Source of the DNA: Candidatus Chisholmbacteria bacterium RIFCSPHIGHO2_01_FULL_52_32
GTDB lineage: Bacteria > Patescibacteriota > Microgenomatia > UBA1400 > Chisholmbacteraceae
NCBI GenBank assembly: GCA_001816585.1
Contig: MHCJ01000001.1
Coordinates: forward strand, 21,538 to 85,537
Direction of reading: 5' to 3'
Length of the DNA: 64,000 nt
Part shown: one piece after another, positions 2 to 51,942 of the stretch
How positions within the stretch are numbered: the first letter of the stretch is position 1
How the letters are laid out: the number at the start of each line of letters is the position of its first letter
Program-made: the position numbers and the translations under genes
Notes under the pieces: model-generated
Databases searched by the model: none
What the model was told of the DNA's origin: nothing
The model's input: only the letters and a program-made list of their open reading frames with translations

Positions 2-763
2 GAGGAGTACAAAGATTTTGTCTGTCAGGCCAACGAGTGCCTCTCCGGCGTCACCGACACCACCTACTGCGCCTCGGGGGATGTCGACGGCTCCGAGCCT
101 TCCGCCATCCGCCGCTGTCCGTTCAGATACTGCCGGCTCTCGGCCTGCCAATCGTCGCCCTCGAGCCCCTCAGACGGAGAGTACTGCGTGCAAAACGCCC
201 GCCGCGATTGCGACATCTACGGCTGGGGCGTTTGTCAAAATGGCTCTTGGGTGTCCACCCTCTCGACGGGTAACAGCGGGGCCTGCTATCCAACCCCCTA
301 CATCACCAAGCGTTGCTCCGGCGGCATCGCCGGAGAGCCGGGTTCCGGCTCCTGGACTACTTTGCCAGGTGCAGCCGAGCAAGGCCGCTGTGAGGAGATG
401 TTAGTCCCCATCAAGATCGCCTTTACCCCCGGCTACGTCCTTACCTACACCCCCTACCTTCGCTCCATCTGGGAAAACACCGTCCACCAAGTCCAGTCGA
501 TCTTTACCCCCTTCCGCACCGAAATCGGCAAAGCCATCTACGATTGGCCGGGAGAATCCTTCATCGGCTATTCCTATTTCGATGACTTCGCCGAGGCCGG
601 TGCCCCGCCGGGAACCGTTCCCGGGAGCATGGCCAAGATCTACTTCCGCTACCTTGGCTACATCCACTGTGCCAAAGAAAACCTCTTAAACAAACTCTCT
701 CCCCTCCTCTACGACATCCCGTATGTCTACTACGATGCCCGCTGCAACGCAGAGCTGTGGTAA
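2..763 (+). CDS. hypothetical Cys-rich secreted-type protein, 5' partial (frame open to window edge)
   Basis: Frame-2 ORF is open from nt 2 (EEYKDFVCQANECLSG...) to TAA at 761-763. About 14 Cys; Gly/Ser/Thr/Tyr-rich. No catalytic motif recognised. Confidence 0.45.
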   Translation, partial: EEYKDFVCQANECLSGVTDTTYCASGDVDGSEPSAIRRCPFRYCRLSACQSSPSSPSDGEYCVQNARRDCDIYGWGVCQNGSWVSTLSTGNSGACYPTPYITKRCSGGIAGEPGSGSWTTLPGAAEQGRCEEMLVPIKIAFTPGYVLTYTPYLRSIWENTVHQVQSIFTPFRTEIGKAIYDWPGESFIGYSYFDDFAEAGAPPGTVPGSMAKIYFRYLGYIHCAKENLLNKLSPLLYDIPYVYYDARCNAELW

Positions 764-800
764 AACAGTTGTCAGTGAAAAGTCAAAAGTTGAAAGTATT
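764..800 (-). promoter_or_regulatory. inverted copy of the recurrent ACTTTTSACTTTT heptamer-repeat motif
   Basis: Reverse complement of 764-800 reads AATACTTTCAACTTTTGACTTTTCACTGACAACTGTT. This matches the direct motif copies at 1183, 7794, 12997, 19218 and 32568. Confidence 0.4.
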
Positions 801-808
801 GGAGAAAA

Positions 809-1174
809 GTGGACAACAAAACCTTTAGTGAGGAGCTAAAGCGTCGGATCTACCGATTCATCACCGATCTTGTGAAATTCACCGAAACACTTCCCAAAAA
901 CGATCCTTTGTCTCGAATCGCCACGAATCAATTGTTACGCAGCGGCACAAGCATCGGTGCCAACTATGTCGAGGCGATTGCCGGAAGTTCCAAAAAGGAT
1001 TTCGCCAACTTCCTCTCTCACTGCTTAAAGTCCGCAAACGAATCAAAGTTCTGGCTTGCCCTCCTCCGAGATACGGGAAAAGGTGCTAAGGACAAAATCA
1101 ATCAGTTGCTGAAAGAACTTATAGAGATATCAAAAATACTCGGAACCAGCGTGAAAACATTAAGAAGTAAATAA
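809..1174 (+). CDS. four-helix-bundle protein (23S rRNA intervening-sequence protein family, TIGR02436-like)
   Basis: GTG start. Motifs IGANYVEA and SKKDFANFLSHCLKSANESKFWLALLRD are typical of the family. 121 aa. Confidence 0.7.
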   Translation: MDNKTFSEELKRRIYRFITDLVKFTETLPKNDPLSRIATNQLLRSGTSIGANYVEAIAGSSKKDFANFLSHCLKSANESKFWLALLRDTGKGAKDKINQLLKELIEISKILGTSVKTLRSK

Positions 1175-1182
1175 TTCTATAG

Positions 1183-1203
1183 ACTTTTGACTTTTAACTG
1201 TGG
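1183..1203 (+). promoter_or_regulatory. recurrent upstream motif copy A (GACTTTTGACTTTTAACTGTG)
   Basis: Lies 12 nt upstream of ATG 1215. Shares ACTTTT(G/C)ACTTTTAACT with four other plus-strand upstream regions. Confidence 0.45.
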
Positions 1204-1214
1204 ACTGTTCTAGA

Positions 1215-6325: not shown

Positions 6326-6428
6326 AGCTTTACTTTCATAGTACTACAAACACCAACGCTAAGTAATTTTCACCATTTTCCAGAGTTAAACGGTATTCTA
6401 CCACAAAAACTATAAAGGGTCAACCAGT

Positions 6429-6455
6429 ATTCAGTCTGCCAATGGCAGACTGAAT
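6429..6455. repeat. perfect 13-bp inverted repeat ATTCAGTCTGCCA-A-TGGCAGACTGAAT (operator-like palindrome or hairpin)
   Basis: Read directly. The arms 6429-6441 and 6443-6455 are exact reverse complements. Sits in the divergent intergenic region between the 1210-aa gene (start 6325) and the second four-helix-bundle gene. Confidence 0.7.
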
Positions 6456-6509
6456 CATTGTTATATTGCTACATTGAAACATTGCTGCTCTTTTTGTAAA
6501 GTTCCAATC

Positions 6510-6884
6510 ATGAAGAAGTATTTAAAGTTGAATGACATTAATTGCTATAAAAGGTCCCTGACGCTATCACAACATGTGTGGGAGATTGTGAATTCGTGGG
6601 AAAAGTTCGCCAAAAGCACTGTTGGTATCCAATATGTCAAAGCCATAGATTCAATTTCCGCAACGATTTCCGAAGGTTTCGGGCGCTTCTTTAAGAAAGA
6701 TAAGATCTTGTTTTACCGCTATAGCCTGGGTTCCGTAACTGAAGCTCTTGATTGGACCCAAAAATCCTGGAAGCGCAAACTCCTAACGAAAGTTCAATAT
6801 GAACATATCTTGAATGAACTTCAAGAACTTCCAAGGGAAATTCGCTATCTGATCAAATTCACAGGTGAAAAATTGAAGAAGTAA
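6510..6884 (+). CDS. four-helix-bundle protein (23S rRNA IVS protein family), second copy
   Basis: ATG at 6510 (MKKYLKLNDINCYKRSLTLSQHVWEIV...). Motifs GFGRFFKKDKILFYRYSLGSVTEALDW match the family. The ORF track's TTG start at 6474 is also possible. Confidence 0.65.
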   Translation: MKKYLKLNDINCYKRSLTLSQHVWEIVNSWEKFAKSTVGIQYVKAIDSISATISEGFGRFFKKDKILFYRYSLGSVTEALDWTQKSWKRKLLTKVQYEHILNELQELPREIRYLIKFTGEKLKK

Positions 6885-6935
6885 ATGAAGGCTCTCCCAG
6901 AAACAATTTAGCAATTTAACAATATAGCAATGGGG

Positions 6936-7238
6936 TTAAGCCGCTCCCGCGGCTTTCCTCGGCCTCCCTCCTCTCTTCCCATACTCCCTCGGAGTTAACA
7001 CAGAAGAAAAATGCGCGGATACTGCCTTCTCCGTGGTGAACCAAATCCACGGGAACCCTTTCTTTTTACTCTCCCTTCTCCGCTTCTCTCCCTCTATCTT
7101 TCCGGTGTTCAAGAGCCTGCGAATCCGATGTGTCGATCTCCCAACCTTCCTTGCCACCTCCGCCACCGAAAGCAACCCCTCCTTTTCCGGAGTCCTCACC
7201 GCTTCAACTGGTGGAGCTAAACCCTCTTTCTCCTCCAT
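6936..7238 (-). CDS. helix-turn-helix DNA-binding protein, excisionase/MerR-like
   Basis: LLSVAEVARKVGRSTHRIRRLLNTGKIEGEK is a typical HTH. Basic C-terminus. Start chosen at MEEKEG (7238); the longer ORF to 7286 is possible. Confidence 0.55.
   Translation of the reverse strand: MEEKEGLAPPVEAVRTPEKEGLLSVAEVARKVGRSTHRIRRLLNTGKIEGEKRRRESKKKGFPWIWFTTEKAVSAHFSSVLTPREYGKRGGRPRKAAGAA
6938..6955 (+). terminator. GC-rich hairpin AAGCCGC-TCCC-GCGGCTT downstream of the four-helix-bundle gene (no T-tract)
   Basis: 7-bp stem with a 4-nt loop. The same 16-mer AGCCGCTCCCGCGGCT forms the groEL terminator at 41059-41074. Overlaps the last codons of the convergent HTH gene. Confidence 0.35.
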
Positions 7239-7311
7239 AGCCGCAAGTATAGCAAAAGAGTGAAAGCGCAAAACATAAAAAGGCAAAAGGCAAAACTTCA
7301 GTTCAAGAGAG

Positions 7312-7350
7312 AATCATGTATTATGAATTATGAATCATGAATTATGAATG
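7312..7350. repeat. five tandem heptamers ATGTATT-ATGAATT-ATGAATC-ATGAATT-ATGAATG
   Basis: Read directly. Located immediately upstream (in its orientation) of the minus-strand HTH gene. Confidence 0.7.
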
Positions 7351-7793
7351 AGGAGCCCACGGAGATTTCTTCACCCTTTTGCAGCCGCCGCAGTTTCCCG
7401 AACGGAACATGAGCGGGAAACCAAAACTGACCTCTTTCCCTAAATCCCCTTTGAACGCAGCTACTCGAGAATGAAGTGAGCGAATTCCTTTAAAAAGTCA
7501 TCGACTGTCCGACGAAGGGTTTATCCCGAGGAGTTTGATGACATGGGATGAGCGAACAAGTTCCCGAGAGATCGTTCGCTGGGGTGCCCTTCTTTTGGAT
7601 ACTTTTCTCGGGCAAGCAAGAAAAGGATCAATCCATTTGTGTGCGCAAAGAAGCAACTGCCATTCTTGGACTGGCAAAGACGGCCCCAATTCTGTCTGGA
7701 GTATAAAATTTCTTTACCTAATCCATTTCCACCTGCTATGATGAGCAAAGAACCACAAAACCATCTCATCAACTTTTAACGTATTGCTCTTAA

Positions 7794-7827
7794 AACTTTG
7801 AACTTTTCATTTTGAACTTTAAACTAT
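7794..7827 (+). promoter_or_regulatory. recurrent upstream motif copy B (AACTTTGAACTTTTCATTTTGAACTTTAAACTAT)
   Basis: Ends 4 nt before ATG 7832. No Shine-Dalgarno follows. TTGAAC-N16-TAAACT resembles a -35/-10 pair, which would make the mRNA leaderless. Confidence 0.45.
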
Positions 7828-7831
7828 CTTT

Positions 7832-10694: not shown

Positions 10695-11759
10695 ATGCAA
10701 TATCGTCTTTCACTCTCCACATTGAAAAGGATCCTCTCCGTAAAAACGGCTCTGTTAATCCTTCTCGTGATTATAATTTTCACCTTAATCGTAGTTATCC
10801 AAAGAGCGCGTCGGAAAGAAACACAACCTCCGGGGGTAAACCCCACATTCGGAGATATTCCTGCCCCAAAACCATCGTACGTTTCCCAGATGAAACCACC
10901 TCAATCAACCGAACTAACACCAGATGAGCAAATCAACCTCAGTGAAACTGCCACTGTCTTCCGACGCGCCTCAACCACACTGACCGATAAACAGGCCAGA
11001 GATATCGCACGTTCATTCGGAATCTCAGGAGAACCCCTGACCTCAAAAACCTCTGTAACATTCCGTGAGAATAACCGCGTGCTTATCGTCAGCTTCAAAA
11101 AAGGTTCGCTTTCATACTTCGAACCCTTGCAGGAGTATCTGAAAGACTTCAGACAGAAAGCCTTGGAAGATTATGCTCTGATTCTCCTCAAACAGCTTTA
11201 CCCCGGGGATCCGCTTTGGGCAAACCCAAAAGTCAAGACTGGTTTCTTCACCATCATTGAGATGCAAGACTTCAAACCCACTGCTCCAAATAAAGCCGAT
11301 CTTGCAATCGTCGATCTTTATCCCACAATCGAGGGACTAAGCATTGTTGGCCCCTTCGATCCCTTCGGACACACCGGAATGGTAAGTATACAATTCAATA
11401 AAAGAGACGGCAGCCTCGTGTTAAACGGCCTGCCAACAGGACTGAACACAGCCCAGGTTGGTACCTATCCGCTGAAGAGCCTTGACGCAGTCCAAGAGGA
11501 AATCAAGCTTGGCCAAGTAACGTTAACTGCCACCATTCCTGAAGGGCAAACCCCAAAAAGCGTGGACTGGGGACAAAACCTCGATCCAACCAAGGCTAGC
11601 TTTACTTCAATCGAACTGGTCTACTACTATGATCCCGATCCTAACGCTTTCCTTCAGCCTATATACCTTTTTTCCGGAAAAACCACCCTTACCGACGGAC
11701 GCCCCGCCAACATTTTCGCCATCCTCCCCGCCATCGACCCCCAATACCTCAAGCCCTAA
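10695..11759 (+). CDS. bitopic membrane-anchored protein (N-terminal TM, ~300-aa extracytoplasmic domain); possible VirB8/TcpC-like
   Basis: TM helix ALLILLVIIIFTLIVVI near the N-terminus. Size and topology resemble TcpC/VirB8-type proteins, but no motif-level support. Confidence 0.5.
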   Translation: MQYRLSLSTLKRILSVKTALLILLVIIIFTLIVVIQRARRKETQPPGVNPTFGDIPAPKPSYVSQMKPPQSTELTPDEQINLSETATVFRRASTTLTDKQARDIARSFGISGEPLTSKTSVTFRENNRVLIVSFKKGSLSYFEPLQEYLKDFRQKALEDYALILLKQLYPGDPLWANPKVKTGFFTIIEMQDFKPTAPNKADLAIVDLYPTIEGLSIVGPFDPFGHTGMVSIQFNKRDGSLVLNGLPTGLNTAQVGTYPLKSLDAVQEEIKLGQVTLTATIPEGQTPKSVDWGQNLDPTKASFTSIELVYYYDPDPNAFLQPIYLFSGKTTLTDGRPANIFAILPAIDPQYLKP

Positions 11760-11785
11760 ACCCCCTACCCTCAACCCTCTCCCCT

Positions 11786-12978: not shown

Positions 12979-12996
12979 GCGAAAGGGTTAATTTTT

Positions 12997-13023
12997 AACT
13001 TTTCACTTTTAACTTTTAACTAT
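12997..13023 (+). promoter_or_regulatory. recurrent upstream motif copy C (AACTTTTCACTTTTAACTTTTAACTAT)
   Basis: Ends 4 nt before ATG 13028. No SD. Confidence 0.45.
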
Positions 13024-13027
13024 TTCC

Positions 13028-13978
13028 ATGGCTCCCGCCCCAATCCAAGCCTCAACCCAAGAACACCTCGAACTTGAGGATATCATCGACAATCTCATCA
13101 TTTTAAAAGACGGCTCTGCCGCCATGATTATCACCACGACGGCCGTCAACTTCGGTCTCCTCTCAGAATCAGAGCAGGACGCAACCATCTACGCCTACGC
13201 CGCGCTGTTGAACTCCCTCACCTTTCCCATCCAGGTCCTCATCCGCTCAAACCGAAAGGACATCACCGGCTACGAAAAGCTTCTCTCCGAGCAGGAAGCC
13301 CGGACTCCCAAGCCGGAGAACAAAGAGCGCATCCGAAAATATCGGGAGTTTATCCAAGAAACCGTCCGTCAACGGAATGTGCTGGACAAAAAGTTCTATA
13401 TCATCATTCCGTTCTCCGTGCTCGAACTGGGAGTGGCCAAATCCGCCTCAGCCATCGCCAAAGGCACCCGCCACACCCTTCCCTTTCCGAAGGACTACAT
13501 CGCCGGTCGAGCCAAGGTTGCCCTTGAACCAAAGCGCGACCACCTCCTTCACCAGCTAGCCAGGCTCGGTCTGCGCGCAAGGCAACTCACCACCAAAGAG
13601 CTGATTCAGCTCATGTTTGAAATCTACAATCCCGAAAGTGCCCAAGGACAGCTTCTCGCTCCTCCGGAGGAGTATCAAACTCCCCTTGTTCGAGCGGCCA
13701 TCGCTTTCCAGGAGCTCCCCCAAATCGAACCCCCCCAACCGCAACCGGCAAAACCGCCTTTCCAAGCCCCTCCTCCGCCCTTAAACCCATTACCGGGAAG
13801 TCAGCCTCAAGTAGTAAGAGAAAATCCTGGACTATCCCAATCCGGCCCCCAAATCACAAGGGAAAATGCCCCGCCTGCTCCCCCCCAAACAACAATCGGA
13901 GATTCAGGCTTTGAGAAACAAGCCCAATCGACCATCGATTCAGCGATGAGCGGTGTCAATGTGAAGGAGGAAGTCTAA
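13028..13978 (+). CDS. VirB4/TrbE N-terminal-domain protein with Pro-rich C-terminal tail (apparent N-terminal half of a split VirB4)
   Basis: LEDIIDNLIILKDGSAAMIITTTAVNFGLLSESEQDATIYAYAALLNSLTFPIQVLIRS follows the l.KDGs...fe..G.dle..s..E.......N.aL..L pattern of TraC/TrbE/VirB4 N-termini. Stop TAA 13976-13978 overlaps ATG 13978 of the next ORF (TAATG). Confidence 0.55.
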   Translation: MAPAPIQASTQEHLELEDIIDNLIILKDGSAAMIITTTAVNFGLLSESEQDATIYAYAALLNSLTFPIQVLIRSNRKDITGYEKLLSEQEARTPKPENKERIRKYREFIQETVRQRNVLDKKFYIIIPFSVLELGVAKSASAIAKGTRHTLPFPKDYIAGRAKVALEPKRDHLLHQLARLGLRARQLTTKELIQLMFEIYNPESAQGQLLAPPEEYQTPLVRAAIAFQELPQIEPPQPQPAKPPFQAPPPPLNPLPGSQPQVVRENPGLSQSGPQITRENAPPAPPQTTIGDSGFEKQAQSTIDSAMSGVNVKEEV

Positions 13979-15930
13979 TGCCCGCCCTCGACATCATCCA
14001 AAAAATCCTCCCTGGGGCAAAACCAAAAGAAGGCCCCCAAGTTTCCCAACCAGGGGCAACACCGGGGAAAAATCCCGTCACCTCCACAAAATCGCGGGCC
14101 GTCGCCCAAAAGCTCGGCACGGGCATGGTCTCCATTCAAGACATCATTGCTCCCGAATCAATTGATGTGGACTTTTCACACTTAAAAATCGGTAATGCCT
14201 ATGTCAGAACCCTCTTTGTCGCTGGCTACCCCAGGTTCGTCAGCGCCAATTGGTTGGCTCCCTTGATAAACTTCGAGCACTCTCTCGATGTATCAATGTT
14301 CATCTATCCTGTCGAGGGCCGCGAGGTCCTCGATGAGCTCAGGCGGAAAATTGGCGAGATGGAGGCGGAAATCGAATCAGATCTCAAGCGCGGTCATATC
14401 GCCGTGGTTGATACGGAAATAAAGCTTGCCGATGCCAAGGCTCTCCAAGAAGAGCTCGCCAAAGGGGCGGAGCGCTTTTTCCAGTTCGGACTCTACGCCA
14501 CCATCACGGCAGTAACACTCGACGAGCTCAGCTCCACCACCAGAAGGGTCCAATCGCTCCTGGGCTCTCTGCTCATCATTTCCAAATCCGCAACCCTCCA
14601 AATGGAGGAAGGCTTCAAAACCACCCTTCCCCTCGGTCAAGACCGCCTTGTGATTACCCGCAATATGGATACCACCTCCCTTGCCACAACCTTTCCCTTC
14701 ACGTCTTCCGAGCTTACCGCCAACGAAGGCATTATGTATGGAATAAACGAACACAACGATTCCCTCATTATCTTCGACCGATTTAGCCTGGAAAATGCCA
14801 ACATGGTCATTTTCGGGAAAAGCGGTTCAGGGAAAAGCTTCTTTGAGAAACTCGAAATCATGCGCTCCTTAATGTTCGGGGTCGAAGTGATCGTCATCGA
14901 TCCCGAAGAAGAATATCGCCGGCTCTGCGATGCCCTTGGGGGAACCTACATTGACTTTGGCTACAATGCACCGGCGAAAATCAACCCCTACGACCTCTCC
15001 GCAATCTACGAGGAAGGGGAAAACGAGCTTGGTCTAAAAATCCTCTCCCTCCATGGACTATTAAAGGTGATGCTTGGCGATGTAACACCGAACGAAGAGG
15101 CAATCCTCGACAGAGCCCTCATTGGCACGTACAAAGCCCGAGGTATCACCCCGGATCCCGCTACCCAACGGAACGAACCGCCACTCATGGAGGACCTCTA
15201 TAAGACACTCATTGGCATGGAGGAAGCCACGGCCAAAGGGCTTTCCGACAGGCTCGAGAAATATGTCAAAGGATCATTCAGAAGCTTCTTCGATCAACAG
15301 TCCAACGTCGACCTGAAGAATTCCCTCACGGTTTTCTCTCTCAAAGAGCTGGAGAACGAAACTCGCCCGATCATCATGTACATCATCCTCGACTACATCT
15401 GGACTAAAGTGAAACGGGATATGAAAAAGCGCCTGGTCGTCGTCGATGAAGCCTGGTACCTGATGAAAAACGCGGACTCGGCTACCTTCCTCTACTCAAT
15501 CGCGAAACGGGCCCGCAAATACTTCCTCGGCCTCACCACCATCACCCAAGACGTCGAAGATTTCCTTGGATCTGACTACGGACACGCAATTATCACCAAC
15601 TCCTCAATCCAGATCCTATTCAAGCAGTCATCGGCCGCCATCGAGCGTCTCGCCGAAGCCTTTTACCTCTCAGAGGGAGAAAAGCATCTCCTTTTGGCCG
15701 CTGATGTTGGCGAGGGATTGTTTTTTGCCGGGCAAAACCACGTAGCCATGCGCGTTGTCGCCTCATCCGAGGAACATCACCTCATCACCACCAAACCCCA
15801 AGAGCTTGTAGAGCTGGAAAGAGAAAAAGAAGAAACCTCCCCCCGAACGACCGCAGCAGTTCCCCGCCCGGGGGAACGGCCGACCCCAACCAACCCACAG
15901 CCCAAAGGGCCTCCCGCTACCAGCTACTAG
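13978..15930 (+). CDS. virB4: VirB4/TrbE/CagE-family T4SS ATPase (PrgJ/TcpF-like)
   Basis: Walker A IFGKSGSGKSFF; Walker B LVVVDEAWYL. Core region RTLFVAGYPRFVSANWLAPLINFEHSLDVSMFIYP matches the CagE_TrbE_VirB domain. 650 aa. Confidence 0.85.
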   Translation: MPALDIIQKILPGAKPKEGPQVSQPGATPGKNPVTSTKSRAVAQKLGTGMVSIQDIIAPESIDVDFSHLKIGNAYVRTLFVAGYPRFVSANWLAPLINFEHSLDVSMFIYPVEGREVLDELRRKIGEMEAEIESDLKRGHIAVVDTEIKLADAKALQEELAKGAERFFQFGLYATITAVTLDELSSTTRRVQSLLGSLLIISKSATLQMEEGFKTTLPLGQDRLVITRNMDTTSLATTFPFTSSELTANEGIMYGINEHNDSLIIFDRFSLENANMVIFGKSGSGKSFFEKLEIMRSLMFGVEVIVIDPEEEYRRLCDALGGTYIDFGYNAPAKINPYDLSAIYEEGENELGLKILSLHGLLKVMLGDVTPNEEAILDRALIGTYKARGITPDPATQRNEPPLMEDLYKTLIGMEEATAKGLSDRLEKYVKGSFRSFFDQQSNVDLKNSLTVFSLKELENETRPIIMYIILDYIWTKVKRDMKKRLVVVDEAWYLMKNADSATFLYSIAKRARKYFLGLTTITQDVEDFLGSDYGHAIITNSSIQILFKQSSAAIERLAEAFYLSEGEKHLLLAADVGEGLFFAGQNHVAMRVVASSEEHHLITTKPQELVELEREKEETSPRTTAAVPRPGERPTPTNPQPKGPPATSY

Positions 15931-15966: not shown

Positions 15967-17115
15967 CTACTTCTGCACCCGAACGGGCATGATCAGATGA
16001 AAAAAAGCTTCCTTTTCAGAAGCAGGGCGGAACACCCCGGGATCCAATCCCCCATTCATTCCAAACACTATCTTCTCCGTCGGAAAAATGGACAAAAGCT
16101 CTAAAAGATACCGGCTGTTAAAAGCGATCTCGCCCTCCCCTCCGGAAAGAGAAATCTCAACCATGTTTTCGCCTTCACCATATGAAGGGGCGTTGGCAGA
16201 AATCGTCAGTCCGGTCTTCTGAAGCTTCCACTGAATGATGTTTGCGCTATCCCGAGCAAAAATCGCAGCCGCTCGAACTGCCCTGAGGAGGGACTCACGA
16301 TCGATGTTCGCCACAATCTTCTCCTCTTTGGGAATAACTTGAGAAAAGTTGGGGAAAGACCCCTCGATGAGCCGGGTTGTCACTTCCCCGTCGCCAAGGC
16401 GGAACATGAGAAGATTCTGTTCAGGAACGAGCCCAAAAGACACTTCGGAAGCGCCAAGCTCATCCGCCAAACGGTCGACATCCCGTAAAGCGCGTGCCGG
16501 GACAATCAATCCCTCTCCTACCACCTTTTTTAGTGCCTTCTGCCACTTCTCTCCTTTCTTTTCCGAATCGGATGAAAGCTGTACCACGCTCAAGCGATAG
16601 CCATCGGTAGCTACAAACTGTAGTCCATTCCCTTCAAGCCTCAGCAAAACGCCGGAGAGGACCGGCCGTGTCTCATCGGAGGATGCCGCAAACACAACCC
16701 TCTCCACTGCCTCCCGAAACGAAGAAACAGGGAGGGAAAACTCCCCGGTACCCGAAACTTGGCTTAAAGATGGAAACTCCATCGCAGGAATACCGGAAAG
16801 TCGGGCCCGATAGGAACCGCACTGGATCCGAAGCGATTCTCCCTCCAAAGACAGCTCAACCGGAGCCAGCGGAAAAGACGAAACAAGCTCACCAAAAACC
16901 TTCGCCGGAACCGTTATCGCTCCCTCTTTCTTTACCTTCGCCCCAATCCGAAGCTGAATCCCCAGACTTAAGTCCGTCGCAGCCAGCTGGAGGATTCCCT
17001 CTTTCGCTGTCAGCAGAACATTCGAAAGAATAGGCAGAGACGGTTTAGAAGAAACCGCATAGGCAACTGACGAGAGACCCTTAACGAGCTTATCCTGAAG
17101 AACTGAAACCTGCAT
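15967..17115 (-). CDS. dnaN: DNA polymerase III beta sliding clamp
   Basis: 382 aa with typical three-domain clamp sequence (LSNVLLTAKEGILQLAATDL...). Adjacent to dnaA. Confidence 0.9.
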   Translation of the reverse strand: MQVSVLQDKLVKGLSSVAYAVSSKPSLPILSNVLLTAKEGILQLAATDLSLGIQLRIGAKVKKEGAITVPAKVFGELVSSFPLAPVELSLEGESLRIQCGSYRARLSGIPAMEFPSLSQVSGTGEFSLPVSSFREAVERVVFAASSDETRPVLSGVLLRLEGNGLQFVATDGYRLSVVQLSSDSEKKGEKWQKALKKVVGEGLIVPARALRDVDRLADELGASEVSFGLVPEQNLLMFRLGDGEVTTRLIEGSFPNFSQVIPKEEKIVANIDRESLLRAVRAAAIFARDSANIIQWKLQKTGLTISANAPSYGEGENMVEISLSGGEGEIAFNSRYLLELLSIFPTEKIVFGMNGGLDPGVFRPASEKEAFFHLIMPVRVQK

Positions 17116-17288
17116 AATTCCCTCCTGAATAATGATTATAAACAGTTGTTCCGAAAGAAGATATCAACAAACATTAAAAGCCACCTTCCTCCGTCCTACT
17201 ACAGAGTATATATAGTAGTAAGAGTAGCAGGTGTTGAGGAAAAGTATAAAACTCACGACTCTCCCTCTGTTAGTTTCTTCATTCCTTC

Positions 17289-17355
17289 GTGTGCAAAAAA
17301 GGACCTGTTATTGTGGAAAAGATTGTGGAAAAAAGGGGATAGTTTGTGGAAAAAC
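17289..17355. promoter_or_regulatory. cluster of four DnaA-box variants (GTGTGCAAAA, TTGTGGAAAA x2, TTTGTGGAAAAA) in the dnaN-dnaA intergenic region
   Basis: Direct repeats of TGTGGAAAA, one mismatch from the TGTGGATAA consensus, spaced 13-20 nt. An AT-rich stretch (AGTATATATAGTAGTAAG, 17197-17215) lies nearby. Confidence 0.55.
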
Positions 17356-17421
17356 CGAAACCTCCCCGGGAGGTATCGTTCAAGGACAAGCCATGTCCGA
17401 GCCTGGAAAGAGCCAAGATAG

Positions 17422-18798
17422 CTAACCATATATTTTTTTACGAATAGTAGAAAGATCGATGCGCAAGGATTCGGAATCGGAAAGCTCGTTGCTGATTTTT
17501 TCGATGGCATGCATGACCGTAGTGTGATCGCGCCCCCCGAGAAGACCCCCAATTTCCTCAAGGGGAAGATGGTGGTCCATGCGAAGGATATACATCGCAA
17601 GGTGCCGCGGCCCAACATAGATCTTTAGCCGCTTTGGTCCCTCAAGGATGGAGGATTTGAGGTTGAAGTGAGCGGCAACGATATGAATAACCTCCTTGGG
17701 TCGTGCGGTCGGCCGCAAGCGAGCCTCTCGATCGTTAAGATTGGATAAAAGGCCGCGTACGAGCTCTTCGGAGATTGGCTGGTTACGAAGCCGTGCTTCA
17801 GAAACGAGACGGGTCAAAAACCCCTCGAGTTTACGGGCGCTCTCAACATTTGCAGAGATGAGCTTTGCCGCATCGATGGGAAGAGTAACATGAAGCGTTC
17901 TGGCTTTAATAAGAAGAATGGCGGTCCGGAGCTCAAAATTAGGTTGTTGAATATCGATAATCAAGCCTCCCTCAAAACGGCTTCGCAGCCGATCCTCAAG
18001 GCCATCAATCGCGTGAGGGGGTTGGTCTGAAACCAGAACAACCTGTCCCCCTTCGCGTTGAATGGCATTGAAGGTATGGAAAAATTCCTCCTGTACCGTG
18101 GCTTTCCCAGCGATGAACTGGATGTCATCGATGAAGAGAGCGCTTGCGCTGCGGTACTTTTTCTTGAAAGGATGGGTCTCTTTCCGCCGGATGGCCTCGA
18201 TGATTTCGTTGGTAAATTCTTCCCCAGTACAATAGATGAGGGAAAGGTCCGGATGGTCTTTGAGCATCACATGACAAATGGCCTGGGTGAGGTGGGTTTT
18301 CCCCACCCCGACACCCCCGTAAATATAGAGGAGATTGTAGGCTCGTCCGGGAGACTTTGCCACCGCCTGTGCCGCGGCATGGGCCATCTCATTTGAGGAA
18401 GAAACCGCAAATGTTTCGAAAGTAAAGTCCTCCCGAAGCCGGACCCGCAGGACAGCGTCATGGTAAAGCTGAGCGAAGGTATCTTCTGATCGAAAAAGGG
18501 GGGCAGCTTCAGAAATTGGGACAGACGGGGCAGCGGTGAAACTGGCAACGGTTAAGACCAGCTCATTGTTTTGTTTGGTGATGCGATCCAACGCCTCTTT
18601 TATCTGGCCGACGTAGCGTTCTTCAATGAATTGCTTGTGATATGCGCTTGAGCAGGCAATCTCGACGATCTGTCGGCCAACATCAACCTGTTGAACCCGT
18701 ACCAGGTGAGTCGGAGCCATCCACGTCATAAAATTACCGTGGGATAACGAGACTTCAAGGTCGGACAGAACAGTTTTCCACAATTGAGCTGTGGTCAT
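17422..18798 (-). CDS. dnaA: chromosomal replication initiator protein DnaA
   Basis: AAA+ motifs GGVGVGKTHL and LFIDDIQF; C-terminal DNA-binding domain (RDHTTVMHAIEKI). Start set at conserved MTTAQLWKTV (ATG 18796-18798). The longer ORF to 19116 would overlap rpmH. Confidence 0.9.
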   Translation of the reverse strand: MTTAQLWKTVLSDLEVSLSHGNFMTWMAPTHLVRVQQVDVGRQIVEIACSSAYHKQFIEERYVGQIKEALDRITKQNNELVLTVASFTAAPSVPISEAAPLFRSEDTFAQLYHDAVLRVRLREDFTFETFAVSSSNEMAHAAAQAVAKSPGRAYNLLYIYGGVGVGKTHLTQAICHVMLKDHPDLSLIYCTGEEFTNEIIEAIRRKETHPFKKKYRSASALFIDDIQFIAGKATVQEEFFHTFNAIQREGGQVVLVSDQPPHAIDGLEDRLRSRFEGGLIIDIQQPNFELRTAILLIKARTLHVTLPIDAAKLISANVESARKLEGFLTRLVSEARLRNQPISEELVRGLLSNLNDREARLRPTARPKEVIHIVAAHFNLKSSILEGPKRLKIYVGPRHLAMYILRMDHHLPLEEIGGLLGGRDHTTVMHAIEKISNELSDSESLRIDLSTIRKKIYG

Positions 18799-18886
18799 AG
18801 CAGTCAAGAGGCAGGGGAAAACCAGGTTAGTAACAGGCGGCCCTACAAAAGGGGAAGGAACCGCAAGCGTGAAGATCTTTGCAAGT

Positions 18887-18994
18887 TTTCCACAATTAGT
18901 CAACCCACAGATTCCCCAAAAGTGGAAAAAATAATGAGGCGCAAGCGGACGCGTACCCGCGCTATCGTCCGGTTCTTCAACCGACGTGGAAAAG
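18887..18994. promoter_or_regulatory. DnaA-box variants TTTTCCACAA (18887-18896), AGTGGAAAAA (18921-18930) and CGTGGAAAAG (18985-18994) in the dnaA-rpmH intergenic region; candidate oriC and dnaA promoter region
   Basis: Read directly. Same 9-mer core as the 17289-17355 cluster. Confidence 0.5.
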
Positions 18995-19006
18995 CGAAAC
19001 CGGGGG

Positions 19007-19015
19007 TGGTAGAAT
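19007..19015 (+). promoter_or_regulatory. extended -10 promoter TGgTAGAAT for rpmH
   Basis: GGTGGTAGAATACG lies 28 nt upstream of ATG 19043. SD-like AAAGGGG lies between. Confidence 0.45.
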
Positions 19016-19042
19016 ACGTTTAAACAGAGAAAGGGGCTGAAG

Positions 19043-19195
19043 ATGCCAAAAAGAACCTGGCAACCAAAAAAAAGAAAGCGGGCCAAAAAGCACGGCTTCC
19101 GAAACAGACAAAGCACAAAACAGGGAAGAAAGACGATGAAAAGAAGACGCGCGAAGGGAAGGAAAACGCTCGCAGTAGTGGTAAAGAGGCGATAG
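19043..19195 (+). CDS. rpmH: 50S ribosomal protein L34
   Basis: 50-aa [53 protein letters not shown]. Below the ORF-track length cutoff; found by manual translation. Sits in the canonical position upstream of rnpA. Confidence 0.85.
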
Positions 19196-19217
19196 CATCT
19201 TTATCTCCCCTCTCTGG

Positions 19218-19253
19218 AACTTTTCACTTTTCACTTTTAACTTTAAACTGTAT
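19218..19253 (+). promoter_or_regulatory. recurrent upstream motif copy D (AACTTTTCACTTTTCACTTTTAACTTTAAACTGTATT)
   Basis: Lies 9 nt upstream of ATG 19263 (rnpA). TTCACT-N16-TAAACT is promoter-like. Confidence 0.45.
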
Positions 19254-19262
19254 TCTTTCCCT

Positions 19263-32488: not shown

Positions 32489-32567
32489 CTCGCTGAAATG
32501 ATAACATGCTTGCGCTGAAAGTTTACCAAGTGATATGATGAGTTCAATGTCGCAAAACTATGTCATA

Positions 32568-32605
32568 AACTTTGCACTTTTCACTTTAAACTTTTAACTG
32601 TTATT
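32568..32605 (+). promoter_or_regulatory. recurrent upstream motif copy E (AAACTTTGCACTTTTCACTTTAAACTTTTAACTGTTATT)
   Basis: Ends directly at ATG 32606. No SD. Confidence 0.45.
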
Positions 32606-37638: not shown

Positions 37639-37711
37639 AACAAACAGAAAAAGGGAGTAGAATAGAAATTCAGAGTATTACTACTTGTAACTTGTATTTT
37701 GTAACTTAGGT

Positions 37712-39208: not shown

Positions 39209-39277
39209 AGGAGGAAAAAGGCAGGAATTAAAGAAAAAAACCGACTTTTCATTTATTCTTTATTCCTTAACACTTAA

Positions 39278-40921
<1,644 letters not shown>

Positions 40922-50416: not shown

Positions 50417-51881
50417 GAATATAGTATTTTACAAGATACGACTTCAATTGAGTAAACCGATCAAGATCTTCAATCACAATAATGTACGGGGGAGGTGACT
50501 CCTGAATGGCGATAATCGTTTCATCGAATGCGCGAAAATCAAAGATATGATAGGAGACCGCATAACGTCCAACCGGGAGTCGTTCGGAGAGTGCATAGAT
50601 AGAGGGCTCAGTTCCCCAGACAAAGATCCGATCCGAAGCAAATGTATGTTGAGTGATATAGGAAGAGATCAGATAATTACGGCGTACCCCGAAAGAATCA
50701 AGGTACCCATCCCAACCTATTCTACCGGTAGCATAGCGGATGAAATTGCGATAATAGGGAAAGGTAGGATAATACCAGAAACGATTTTCAATGTATGCCA
50801 AGAGTAACAAGGTAAACAGCATGGCCGCCAGAAGACGGACCAGAAAGAAACGTTCGGAATAAACAAGCGTTATCAAAAAAACCGCCGCCGCCAATGGCTC
50901 AAGAAGATAGTGTGGGTAGGGACGGCTTGAGAGGAGCGCACCGTACATCGAAAAGACAGCCCAAAGTGAGACAAAGCGAACCGCCATAGAAAGCTTCGAA
51001 GAAAAGAGGAACAGAAAAACAGTAACTCCCAGTACAACAGCACCGCGCCAAATCAATGGGTTGGTGAAGACCCCCTCTCCCCCACTCCGCCAAGAAGACA
51101 CGTACCCGACGTTCTGGAGAAGCGCTGCAGAAACATAGGGTTCAAAAGCCCCAAGCCAAGAATAATAGGCGATGCTCAAAAGAACGGGAAGGACAAATCC
51201 GGAAACCATAGCCAAGAAAGGAAGGGAAAGCATTCGCCGAACCAAAACCCGAACCCGGAAAGATGGCTCGACAAAAAAACACCAAAACAACAACAGGCTG
51301 AAGAAGTCAAACAGGATGGGGATCTTAAAAAGAAAGCTGACAGCAAATGACAACCCAATAGAAAAAGGAATAAGCGGCCGATGATTTGTGGAAGGGACGG
51401 TCAGGAAACGGTAGAACAAAAAGAAACCAATAATGGCCGGAACAATCATGAAGTTTTCGCCGTTGGCAATGTTACCTTCCAAAGTTGGGAGAGTGGAAAA
51501 GACACCAAAAACCGCTGTAGCGATGAAAACCGCAACCCGGTTTTTGTCAAACAGAAGTTCCGCAAGTTTCCAGAAAAAGATAACCCCAAACGTATGGAAA
51601 ACAAGCAGAATGAACCGAAACCAAAACAGACTACCCGCAACCGCCGCTACAAGATAGAGAAGTGGAGGTTTGTTGTCATGAATGTCGCGATAGAGGACAA
51701 GGCCTTTACGGACGGCCTGGCCGAGCGTGAGATAGATTTCTTCATCGGCATACCGATGCGGCTCAACCAGCGAAGGGATCCGGAGGACGAAGATAAAAAG
51801 GAAAAGTACAATGAGCGCACGGTATTTTGCAATGAATATGGCAATCTTGTGAGCAAGAGATTGCGGCCCGGCGTTATTCAT
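50346..51881 (-). CDS. GT-C fold glycosyltransferase family 39/ArnT-like (PMT_2)
   Basis: N-terminal YADEEIYLTLGQAVRKGLVLYRDIHDNKPPLLYL (DE..Y...KPPL signature) plus many TM helices. Confidence 0.7.
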   Translation of the reverse strand: MNNAGPQSLAHKIAIFIAKYRALIVLFLFIFVLRIPSLVEPHRYADEEIYLTLGQAVRKGLVLYRDIHDNKPPLLYLVAAVAGSLFWFRFILLVFHTFGVIFFWKLAELLFDKNRVAVFIATAVFGVFSTLPTLEGNIANGENFMIVPAIIGFFLFYRFLTVPSTNHRPLIPFSIGLSFAVSFLFKIPILFDFFSLLLFWCFFVEPSFRVRVLVRRMLSLPFLAMVSGFVLPVLLSIAYYSWLGAFEPYVSAALLQNVGYVSSWRSGGEGVFTNPLIWRGAVVLGVTVFLFLFSSKLSMAVRFVSLWAVFSMYGALLSSRPYPHYLLEPLAAAVFLITLVYSERFFLVRLLAAMLFTLLLLAYIENRFWYYPTFPYYRNFIRYATGRIGWDGYLDSFGVRRNYLISSYITQHTFASDRIFVWGTEPSIYALSERLPVGRYAVSYHIFDFRAFDETIIAIQESPPPYIIVIEDLDRFTQLKSYLVKYYILETTIEGASLYRRLPDTQAQVGH

Positions 51882-51942
51882 TGTTTCATTGTTTCATGGT
51901 TTCATTGAACAATACAACAATGGAACAATATAACAGTTGTAG

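Follow-up and report, generated by a model that had tools for sequence, protein, structure and literature searches.

Heptamer repeats of the unit TAACTGA occur in Beggiatoaceae, where 'Maribeggiatoa' carries 169 sets that are mostly forward and end a few nucleotides from start codons without a ribosome-binding site (RBS) (PMC4679880). Some Cyanobacteria and Bacteroidetes have them as well; a function in translation was proposed for them but not tested (MacGregor 2015, PMC4679880). These repeats are the closest precedent for the arrays reported here, which were found in a 64,000-nucleotide stretch of Candidatus Chisholmbacteria bacterium RIFCSPHIGHO2_01_FULL_52_32 (contig MHCJ01000001.1, positions 21,538 to 85,537), referred to below as the window. 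As in Beggiatoaceae, the arrays consist of 2 to 6 tandem 7-nt units, are mostly intergenic and forward, and stand near RBS-less starts. They precede unrelated genes, including ribosomal-protein operons, and some overlap the ends of upstream open reading frames (ORFs). The AACT core is common to both, the window arrays ending in TAACTGT or TAACTAT. However, the unit in the window is NACTTTN and only the closing (T)AACTGT or AACTAT resembles TAACTGA, the host belongs to the Candidate Phyla Radiation (CPR), and the arrays are tied, as inverted brackets, to genes for intervening-sequence proteins (IVPs). The Beggiatoaceae study records one inverted repeat and makes no mention of intervening-sequence or four-helix proteins (PMC4679880).

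The heptamers TTTTGAA and GACYAAT of Nostoc PCC 7120 lie near promoters and start codons; a binding partner has been postulated, and effects on expression were obtained in reporter constructs (10.1101/2022.06.06.494920). Arrays of 3 to 8 units within 100 nt of, or overlapping, many start codons are a feature shared with our set, whereas the units differ and no link to IVP genes is described there. The short tandemly repeated repetitive heptamers of cyanobacteria are comparable as well. In Vibrio cholerae, the TTTTGAT repeats upstream of ctxAB are protein-binding sites (ToxR and H-NS), and their copy number modulates expression (10.1101/2021.05.14.444153). These are likewise tandem T-rich heptamers upstream of a gene, but they lie upstream of the -35 element at a single locus, whereas the window arrays are dispersed and stand against start codons.

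The 23S rRNA intervening sequences (IVSs) of Leptospira and Coxiella, and rRNA insertions of CPR bacteria (10.1101/2024.02.27.582315), resemble the window cassettes in that a PF05635 gene lies within inverted repeats able to form a long stem. In contrast to them, the cassettes described here lie between protein-coding genes (between tRNA genes on two contigs, L147 and L148) and not in rRNA helices, their arms consist of heptamers in tandem, and solo arms occur scattered in front of other genes. In rRNA, RNase III cuts the IVS stem, and the segment that it bounds is discarded. Repetitive extragenic palindromes (REPs or REPINs) and their associated transposases (RAYTs) offer another likeness, namely, a gene that lies between two inverted copies of a short repeat, further copies of which are dispersed through intergenic DNA, singly or as hairpin-forming pairs. 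However, RAYT is an HUH (IS200/IS605-like) transposase, whereas the first IVP of the window (IVP1) is a 121-aa four-helix bundle, and REPs are imperfect palindromes that, unlike the window arrays, lie mostly downstream of genes. IVP four-helix-bundle proteins are abundant across bacteria; to our knowledge, they have no known catalytic activity and no known function outside diversity-generating retroelements (DGRs). Our literature search found no described link between IVP genes and heptamer arrays, although such a report may still exist.

The window contains five plus-strand copies of one form. Aligned from the 3' end, each consists of three to five (A/C/G)ACTTT(N) units followed by a closing AACT(A/G)T. 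A sequence-only reading had reported these copies, and re-reading of the DNA confirmed their positions and shape. It had also regarded them as a single-strand set, which proved incorrect, because positions 761 to 800 hold a sixth copy in minus-strand orientation. The six arrays and the elements next to them are as follows.

761..800, minus strand: sixth, inverted AACTTTN array, forming the left arm of the IVP1 inverted repeat; A-rich when read on the plus strand.
809..1174, plus strand: IVP gene 1, encoding the 121-aa four-helix bundle (PF05635, TIGR02436), with its own GGAG Shine-Dalgarno (SD) sequence.
1173..1212, plus strand: copy 1 (1183-1203 in the sequence-only reading), right arm of the IVP1 bracket, ending just before the VirB6-like start (ATG at 1215 or 1224).
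7733..7741, plus strand: candidate extended -10 TGcTATGAT about 50 nt 5' of copy 2 (TTTACC-18-TATGAT with TG).
7794..7827, plus strand: copy 2, solo array, 4 nt 5' of the ATG (7832) of the M23 giant gene; found by Tandem Repeats Finder (TRF) and motif scan.
12988..13023, plus strand: copy 3, solo array, occupying the whole intercistronic spacer between PrgI and the VirB4 N-part gene (VirB4N); found by TRF.
19043..19196, plus strand: rpmH (L34), absent from the ORF list; promoter candidate TGgTAGAAT at 19007-19015.
19218..19251, plus strand: copy 4, the one flagged by the sequence-only reading, solo array between rpmH and rnpA; found by TRF.
32531..32539, plus strand: candidate extended -10 TGaTATGAT about 30 nt 5' of copy 5, from reading of the sequence.
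32568..32601, plus strand: copy 5, solo array, 4 nt 5' of the ATG (32606) of the SBP gene; found by TRF and motif scan.

Five of the six copies combine forward orientation, a gap of 4 to 13 nt to a start codon and the absence of an SD; the sequence-only reading was right on the sense placement against start codons and on the missing SD. From the end of AACTRT to the ATG, the gap is 4 nt for the copies at 7794, 12990 and 32568, 11 nt for the copy at 19218 and 13 nt for the copy at 1183, or 6 nt if the additional GGACTGT unit of the latter is counted. No SD-like sequence was found within 14 nt of the start at any of the five array-led genes; GGAGG-like purine runs 4 to 12 nt before the start precede approximately 11 other window genes. 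Pfam assignments agreed with the gene identities given previously, that is, TrbL/VirB6 (a weak match), M23 peptidase, the N-part of a TraC-like VirB4, rnpA and SBP. TRF detected period-7 arrays of 3.7 to 5.1 copies at 7794, 12988, 19218 and 32568. The motif ACTTTTNACTTT with one mismatch or less was matched 19 times in the window compared with 1.9 ± 1.4 times in shuffled sequences, none of 100 shuffles reaching 19, and AACTTTWAACTRT was matched 14 times compared with 3.8 expected. The earlier statement that the copy number is far above chance was thus upheld. These shuffles, together with the occurrence of arrays in genomes of 58 to 68% GC, ruled out a chance or low-complexity artifact. A known RNA family was ruled out by an Rfam gathering scan of the window, in which tRNA-Cys was the only match and no rRNA was found.

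Degenerate or different-unit arrays also precede the starts of groEL (which has no SD), of PrgI and of the genes for Band7 and a 511-aa protein. Three of them are listed below.

37683..37707, plus strand: solo heptamer array of a different unit, ACTTGTA, 4 nt 5' of the Band7/SPFH gene ATG.
39244..39283, plus strand: degenerate T-rich array GACTTTT CATTTAT TCTTTAT TCCTTAA CACTTAA in the groES-groEL spacer.
51877..51935, minus strand: solo arrays, three units of ATTGTTNN and then three of ATGAAACN, reaching the ATG of the 511-aa gene (start codon at 51881).

In the groES-groEL spacer (39209-39283), the array follows an A/G-rich run (AGGAGGAAAAAGGCAGGAATTAAAGAAAAAAA), with which it forms a weak hairpin (-12.5 kcal/mol, z = -1.2). 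Upstream of PrgI, a C-rich tandem repeat (CCTCAAC / CCCTAAACCCCCTA) at 11747-11785 spans the stop codon of a 354-aa gene, and a CCTATTC-type array lies between this gene and the PrgI start.

The sixth copy and copy 1 are the two arms of an inverted repeat (761-800 and 1173-1212, 40 nt, 78% complementary) that encloses IVP gene 1 exactly. The arms pair with each other in both the minimum free energy and the centroid RNA folds. The IVP1 protein scored 2.4e-19 with PF05635 and 5.7e-25 with TIGR02436 and matched PDB entry 2RLD with E=6e-14; IVP homologues crystallize with five chains per entry. A further PDB match, 'Win31' (E=0.68), is a designed protein and irrelevant. Pfam/TIGR profile and PDB searches found no transposase domain in the 121-aa protein. 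The GC content of the gene is 0.44, compared with 0.50 for the window. A second IVP gene (IVP2; PF05635 1.3e-18, TIGR02436 4.5e-19) is bracketed in the same manner by arms that are 34 nt long and 76% complementary.

6456..6489, plus strand: left arm of the IVP2 bracket, with the 8-nt unit ATTGYTNN.
6510..6884, plus strand: IVP gene 2, 124 aa (PF05635, TIGR02436).
6899..6932, plus strand: right arm of the IVP2 bracket.

The unit of the IVP2 arms is the same as the first unit of the 51877-51935 solo array (ATTGTTNN, 51908-51935). The other four plus-strand AACTTTN copies are solo arrays of the right-arm type, T-rich and sense, which fill the spacer 5' of SD-less start codons.

Several features were noted around IVP2. 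Directly before its left arm, a perfect 12-bp hairpin (ATTCAGTCTGCC AAT GGCAGACTGAAT) at 6429-6455 faces the end of the region of a 1210-aa minus-strand gene and is terminator-like, without a clear T run. A small HTH_17/excisionase-like gene (6936-7232) is preceded, at a distance of approximately 80 nt, by 5.6 copies of the -10-like heptamer CATRATT (minus strand, 7311-7349). The stretch 6330-7830, which contains IVP2, is low in GC and varies between relatives; a PIN toxin-antitoxin pair occupies the same position in one of them, L130.

A metagenome scan with IVP1 retrieved 80 loci, of which 60 non-identical complete cassettes were used for flank statistics. Period 7 was the best period in 50 of the 60 downstream flanks and in 45 of the 60 upstream flanks. 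The two arms of a locus had a median complementarity score of 13; the score was 8 when an arm was compared with those of different loci and 7 when the arms were compared in direct orientation. Watson-Crick pairs accounted for 85% of the arm positions of 47 cassettes. The repeat unit differs between loci (AACTTTT, TTTTCAT, TTTTGCC, TATACGT, AATTGAAA, CATTTGG and others), and the two arms of one locus always match each other; paired arms co-vary, and across the 80 loci the unit type tracks the similarity of the IVP sequences. The IVP genes are 4 to 16 GC points below their host loci.

IVP genes are thus systematically bracketed by heptamer arrays, and the bracket recurs in CPR, Bacteroidota and Cyanobacteria. 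In a Parcubacteria genome (L019), an IVP homologue of 47% identity lies between inverted AACTTT arrays. A Cytophagaceae contig of 58% GC (L030) reads ychF stop, (GAAAGTT)n, IVP, (CAACTTT)n, 4 nt and the ATG of lptB, and in L031 the IVP gene is flanked by TTTTGAT arrays. RefSeq genes annotated as 'four helix bundle protein' have inverted heptamer array flanks in Bernardetia, Dolichospermum (plasmids) and Anabaena replicons; in one Treponema gene of this kind, the flanking arrays are direct, not inverted. On contigs L147 and L148, the cassette lies between tRNA-Gly(CCC) and tRNA-Thr(CGT), and its right arm touches the tRNA 5' end. An in-frame TGA at a conserved IVP position (…QMLxSGTSIGANY; L147 3105-3112 and L148) suggests that these two contigs use genetic code 25 (Gracilibacteria/Absconditabacteria). 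On the Anabaena cylindrica plasmid pANACY.01 (L219, 155203-156320), an IVP gene with inverted heptamer arrays lies between cas2 and cas1 on the opposite strand, with a bracket of the rare T-rich-first polarity. On a Bernardetia plasmid (L216, 764-812), the IVP right arm, built of CTAATCA units, stops 5 nt before the recF ATG; for Nostoc PCC 7120, an independent study has likewise described heptamer repeats that precede recF.

A genome-collection scan with three units followed by AACTRT gave 126 independent arrays among the matches listed, and the figures in this paragraph apply to those matches. The sequence-only reading had proposed a genome-wide motif search; the three-unit pattern was too general to serve for the source genome alone, but it did show that the arrays spread across phyla. 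They were present in Bacteroidota, Cyanobacteria, Acidobacteriota, Chloroflexota, Nitrospira, Clostridia, Gammaproteobacteria and many CPR, at loci that include some of 58 to 68% GC. An inverted partner stood upstream, with the A-rich arm first, in 29 of the 126 arrays and downstream in one. The loops of these pairs measured 9 to 414 nt and were empty, contained terminator hairpins and -10 boxes, which then stand upstream of the right arm, or contained an IVP gene. In SD-using phyla, six arrays were followed by an SD, a start codon and an ORF, five of them with an array-SD gap of 1 to 5 nt, compared with one in antisense. An ORF beginning with ATG lay within 80 nt in the sense direction of about 30% of arrays, compared with 17% on the other side. 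Many array loci had no IVP gene in the 8 kb examined. The five copies and the sixth, inverted one are members of a class of AT-rich heptanucleotide tandem arrays that is widespread, and they do not represent a promoter consensus peculiar to the genome studied here. Such a consensus would explain neither arrays upstream of SDs, nor arrays beside tRNA genes, nor inverted arms around IVP genes.

Two variants of the arrays were also seen. In one Patescibacteria metagenome-assembled genome, a GC-rich hairpin of 13 bp (GACCCGACCTCTC…GAGAGGTCGGGTC) has an (AACTTTC)4-AACTAT array as its loop; this unit is present on two contigs (L011 7090-7190 and L070 95-195) and is therefore a composite dispersed repeat. 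In some genomes, L073 (Flavobacteriales) and L108 among them, arrays lie inside ORFs in reverse orientation, and the stretches that they encode are rich in Lys, Glu and Ser (…FKVESEKLKE…); MacGregor described the same for TAACTGA.

Conservation was assessed in six syntenic Chisholmbacteria-like contigs (L130, L131, L132, L213, L214 and L215), whose VirB4 proteins are 72 to 84% identical. The M23 array is common to the window and L132; no other part of this intergenic region, which has diverged between the two, aligns as well. The PrgI-VirB4N spacer contains an AACTTT array in the window, L130 and L213, measuring 40 to 61 nt in the latter two; it has no array and is 4 to 12 nt long in L131, L132 and L215, and L214, also without the array, has two called genes that overlap there. 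The rnpA array was found in the window only and is absent from all six relatives. In L130, an ordinary TAGAAT/TATAAT-type box occupies the orthologous rnpA site instead. Other heptamers stand at equivalent positions: in L130, AAACATT precedes M23 and yidC, and in L132, CTAAACS precedes PrgI and yidC. The rnpA array was identical, without length variation, in 10 assemblies from different samples, and the VirB4N array was identical in two further assemblies, L001 and L005. A phase-variable repeat was rejected, as no variation in unit number occurred across the 10 assemblies. The extended -10 motif before M23 is kept in L131, 20 nt 5' of the ATG, where no array exists.

Judging from sequence, we consider the chances about even that the arrays belong to an IVP-associated family of heptamer repeats and serve as U-rich leader elements that are transcribed and remain unstructured. 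The solo arrays would be transcribed within polycistronic mRNAs or 5' untranslated regions. This location is supported by three copies internal to conserved operons, i.e., copy 3 (PrgI-VirB4N), copy 4, which lies between rpmH and rnpA in their classical operon and downstream of the rpmH promoter candidate, and the IVP1 right arm (IVP-VirB6), and by copies 2 and 5, which stand 30 to 50 nt downstream of TGnTATGAT extended -10 candidates. The 4- to 12-nt PrgI-VirB4N spacers of relatives without an array, the arrays just 5' of SDs in SD-using phyla and the terminator hairpins and -10 boxes upstream of right arms point to the same location. The missing SDs at array-led genes, the alignment of the M23 array with that of L132 and the Beggiatoaceae and Nostoc precedents also speak for the leader reading. 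In RNA folds, the solo arrays and their start codons were unpaired, with stability no greater than that of shuffled sequences. The leader reading was favored because the solo arrays are unpaired and because promoter geometry fails for the copies as a class. As G-poor, U-rich and unstructured leaders, the arrays might allow the ribosome to load without an SD, acting as an S1-type standby site or as an enhancer, and a repeat-binding protein could possibly modulate them. Where an inverted partner is present, the arms would pair into a long stem and thereby separate what lies between them (an IVP gene or a terminator/promoter region) from the genes on either side. In evolution, the arrays would be labile insertions, gained and lost at gene junctions. 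SD-independent enhancers of this general kind include the epsilon element of phage T7 gene 10 (UUAACUUUA), the omega leader of tobacco mosaic virus with its ACAAUUAC direct repeats and S1-binding U-rich leaders; they normally act together with an SD or were defined in Escherichia coli. We take the arrays to be similar to them in being U/A-rich, G-poor, unstructured and placed just 5' of the start, and copy 4 contains an exact TTAACTTTA at 19237-19245.

Several observations weigh against this leader function. Copies 1 and 2 form decent -35/-10 pairs with leaderless geometry. In 48 cassettes, right-arm TAnnnT hexamers are phase-locked to the ATG, phases 0 and 6 mod 7 holding 47 of 94 compared with approximately 27 expected, and this lock fits a -10 element 6 to 7 nt before the start equally well. 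A wobble test on 47 arm pairs was not significant (57 G:U versus 46 A:C, P = 0.32) and therefore did not demonstrate that a stem in the sense-strand RNA is under selection; maintenance of the inverted repeat could instead take place at the DNA level or through copying. The absence of the rnpA array from six of six relatives means that it is dispensable there. Finally, since only about 30% of the AACTTT arrays listed across phyla have an ORF start within 80 nt, a start-codon role is not the whole story.

We regard as unlikely that the arrays are instead promoters of leaderless mRNAs, in which the units supply the -35 and -10 elements (TTGAAC/TTGACT and TAAACT/TAATTT) and transcription starts on the A of the ATG. 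Such promoters would not be foreign to this genome: TATAAT, TAGAAT or TACAAT stands 6 to 10 nt before about 15 of 50 window starts, so that many leaderless-type promoters appear to be in use, and relatives have ordinary boxes of this type at orthologous sites, as at rnpA in L130. The sequence-only reading had proposed a -35/-10 pair within the motif; such a pair is credible in copies 1 and 2 and not in copies 3, 4 and 5, so that the reading is partly supported without holding for the array class. In copy 1, TTGACT (1187) and TAGAAT (1211-1216) are spaced by 18 nt and would place the 5' end of a leaderless mRNA on the second ATG (1224), 7 nt beyond; in copy 2, TTGAAC-16-TAAACT is followed by 6 nt and the ATG. 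AACT, 6 nt and the ATG also follow one another in copies 3 and 5, but the hexamer that stands at the appropriate distance in them, TTAACT, does not have the A that is essential at -11, and no -35 is correctly spaced (16 to 18 nt). Copy 4 has TATTCT 6 nt before the ATG, with a weak -35 (TTTTCA or TTTCAC, 2 of 6 positions). A -10 hexamer with A2 and T6 thus stands 6 to 8 nt before the start in copies 1 (second ATG), 2 and 4 and not in copies 3 and 5, and a credible pair is present in two of the five copies only. IVP right arms often end in TAATTT, 5 to 6 nt and ATG, in keeping with the phase lock, but the variable N position is not conserved so as to preserve the hexamers. A start inside an array that lies 1 to 5 nt upstream of an SD, as in other phyla, would leave almost no leader, and where an array abuts a tRNA 5' end, transcription initiated 7 nt downstream would begin within the tRNA. 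From the inverted left arm, transcription would run antisense into the preceding gene, and three copies need no promoter because they are operon-internal. A reading as an extracytoplasmic function sigma factor promoter, with a GGAACTT-like -35, was rejected, as no matching -10 was seen.

Binding-site arrays, either DNA operators, the alternative already raised in the sequence-only reading, or RNA operators, are a rival that we judge to be still somewhat less probable, the candidate binder being a pentameric IVP protein with the solo arrays as its regulon. The units that flank both window IVP genes recur as solo arrays (AACTTTN four times and ATTGTTNN once, at 51908-51935), unit type tracks IVP similarity across the 80 loci, and each relative has its own unit common to several genes (AAACATT in L130, CTAAACS in L132). 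The five chains per PDB entry of IVP homologues may be compared with the approximately four to five units per array, and the DGR protein Avd, of the same fold family as IVP, is reported to be a nucleic-acid-binding pentamer. However, covariation of unit and IVP is equally expected if the cassette is inherited or moved whole, many array loci have no IVP gene in the 8 kb examined, and sequence-specific binding by a PF05635 protein is a hypothesis. Nearby solo units matched the arm unit in 41% of cases compared with 29% in the control, which is not decisive because most units are similar T-rich heptamers. In its most specific form, which is more doubtful again, PF05635/TIGR02436 proteins would bind the arrays sequence-specifically, a pentamer to about five 7-nt units; same-unit solo arrays would be a transcriptional or posttranscriptional regulon, or the IVP would propagate the arrays, and each IVP gene would sit between two copies of its own site. 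Least probable in our judgment are neutral by-products, that is, footprints or arms of a mobile IVS-like IVP cassette, or slippage repeats, tolerated in short noncoding gaps. The low GC content of IVP genes relative to their host loci, AT-rich arrays in genomes of 58 to 68% GC and the patchy presence at orthologous junctions of close relatives all fit such an origin, and hairpin-mediated deletion of a quasi-palindrome can leave one arm. Heptamers are reported to be the commonest long simple repeats in bacteria (Mrazek 2007, cited in PMC4679880). Yet all four window solo copies and the great majority of cassette right arms are sense and tight against a start codon, the inverted pairs listed are 29:1 in A-rich-first polarity, a comparison of two species shows the M23 array to be better conserved than the sequence around it, length did not vary in 10 assemblies, and array-led groEL, rnpA and the type IV secretion system (T4SS) ATPase must be expressed without an SD.

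Other observations concern the surroundings of the arrays. An identical TGnTATGATGAG, which reads as an extended -10, occurs at 7733-7745 and 32531-32543 upstream of both 'first-gene' arrays (M23 and SBP). These sites also open short upstream ORFs, MMSKEPQNHLINF and MMSSMSQNYVINFALFTLNF, each closed by a stop, and the MMSSMSQNYVINFALFTLNF frame passes through the array. ATGATGA lies likewise upstream of M23 in relatives L130 and L131. Near copy 4, dnaN and dnaA on the minus strand are divergent from rpmH-rnpA-yidD-yidC-khpB on the plus strand (15967-19262). GC skew changes from strongly negative to about zero or positive near 16 to 19 kb, and a replication origin therefore probably lies in or beside the dnaA/rpmH region. 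A DnaA box or origin element, considered because copy 4 is near dnaA/rpmH, was rejected as an identity for the arrays: the sequence does not resemble a DnaA box, and a long distance separates the remaining copies from the origin. A role of the arrays as three-frame-stop 'translation terminators' was also rejected: the TAA triplets of copy 4 are in one frame only, and the idea is therefore not general. rpmH had been missed by the ORF listing, which was set at 80 aa, and the GTG at 19116 over-extends dnaA, whose likely start is near 18903. Downstream of copy 3, VirB4 (13028-15930) is encoded in two ORFs, a TraC-like N-terminal part of 316 aa and an ATPase of 650 aa, which overlap by one base (ATGA-type junction); the split is kept in all six relatives examined.

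These results add start-codon heptamer arrays in a CPR (Chisholmbacteria-like) genome from Rifle groundwater, standing at the essential genes rnpA, groEL and the T4SS ATPase, to the systems described previously. AACTTTN arrays span many phyla irrespective of GC content, and motifs of this type should not be annotated as lineage-specific promoters. As far as the literature searched goes, the systematic tie of heptamer arrays to IVP genes is new, and it links two orphan observations, heptamer repeats and IVP proteins, to each other. If IVP proteins did bind the arrays, this would provide a function both for a protein family that has been an orphan since the 1990s and for the unexplained heptamer repeats of bacteria.

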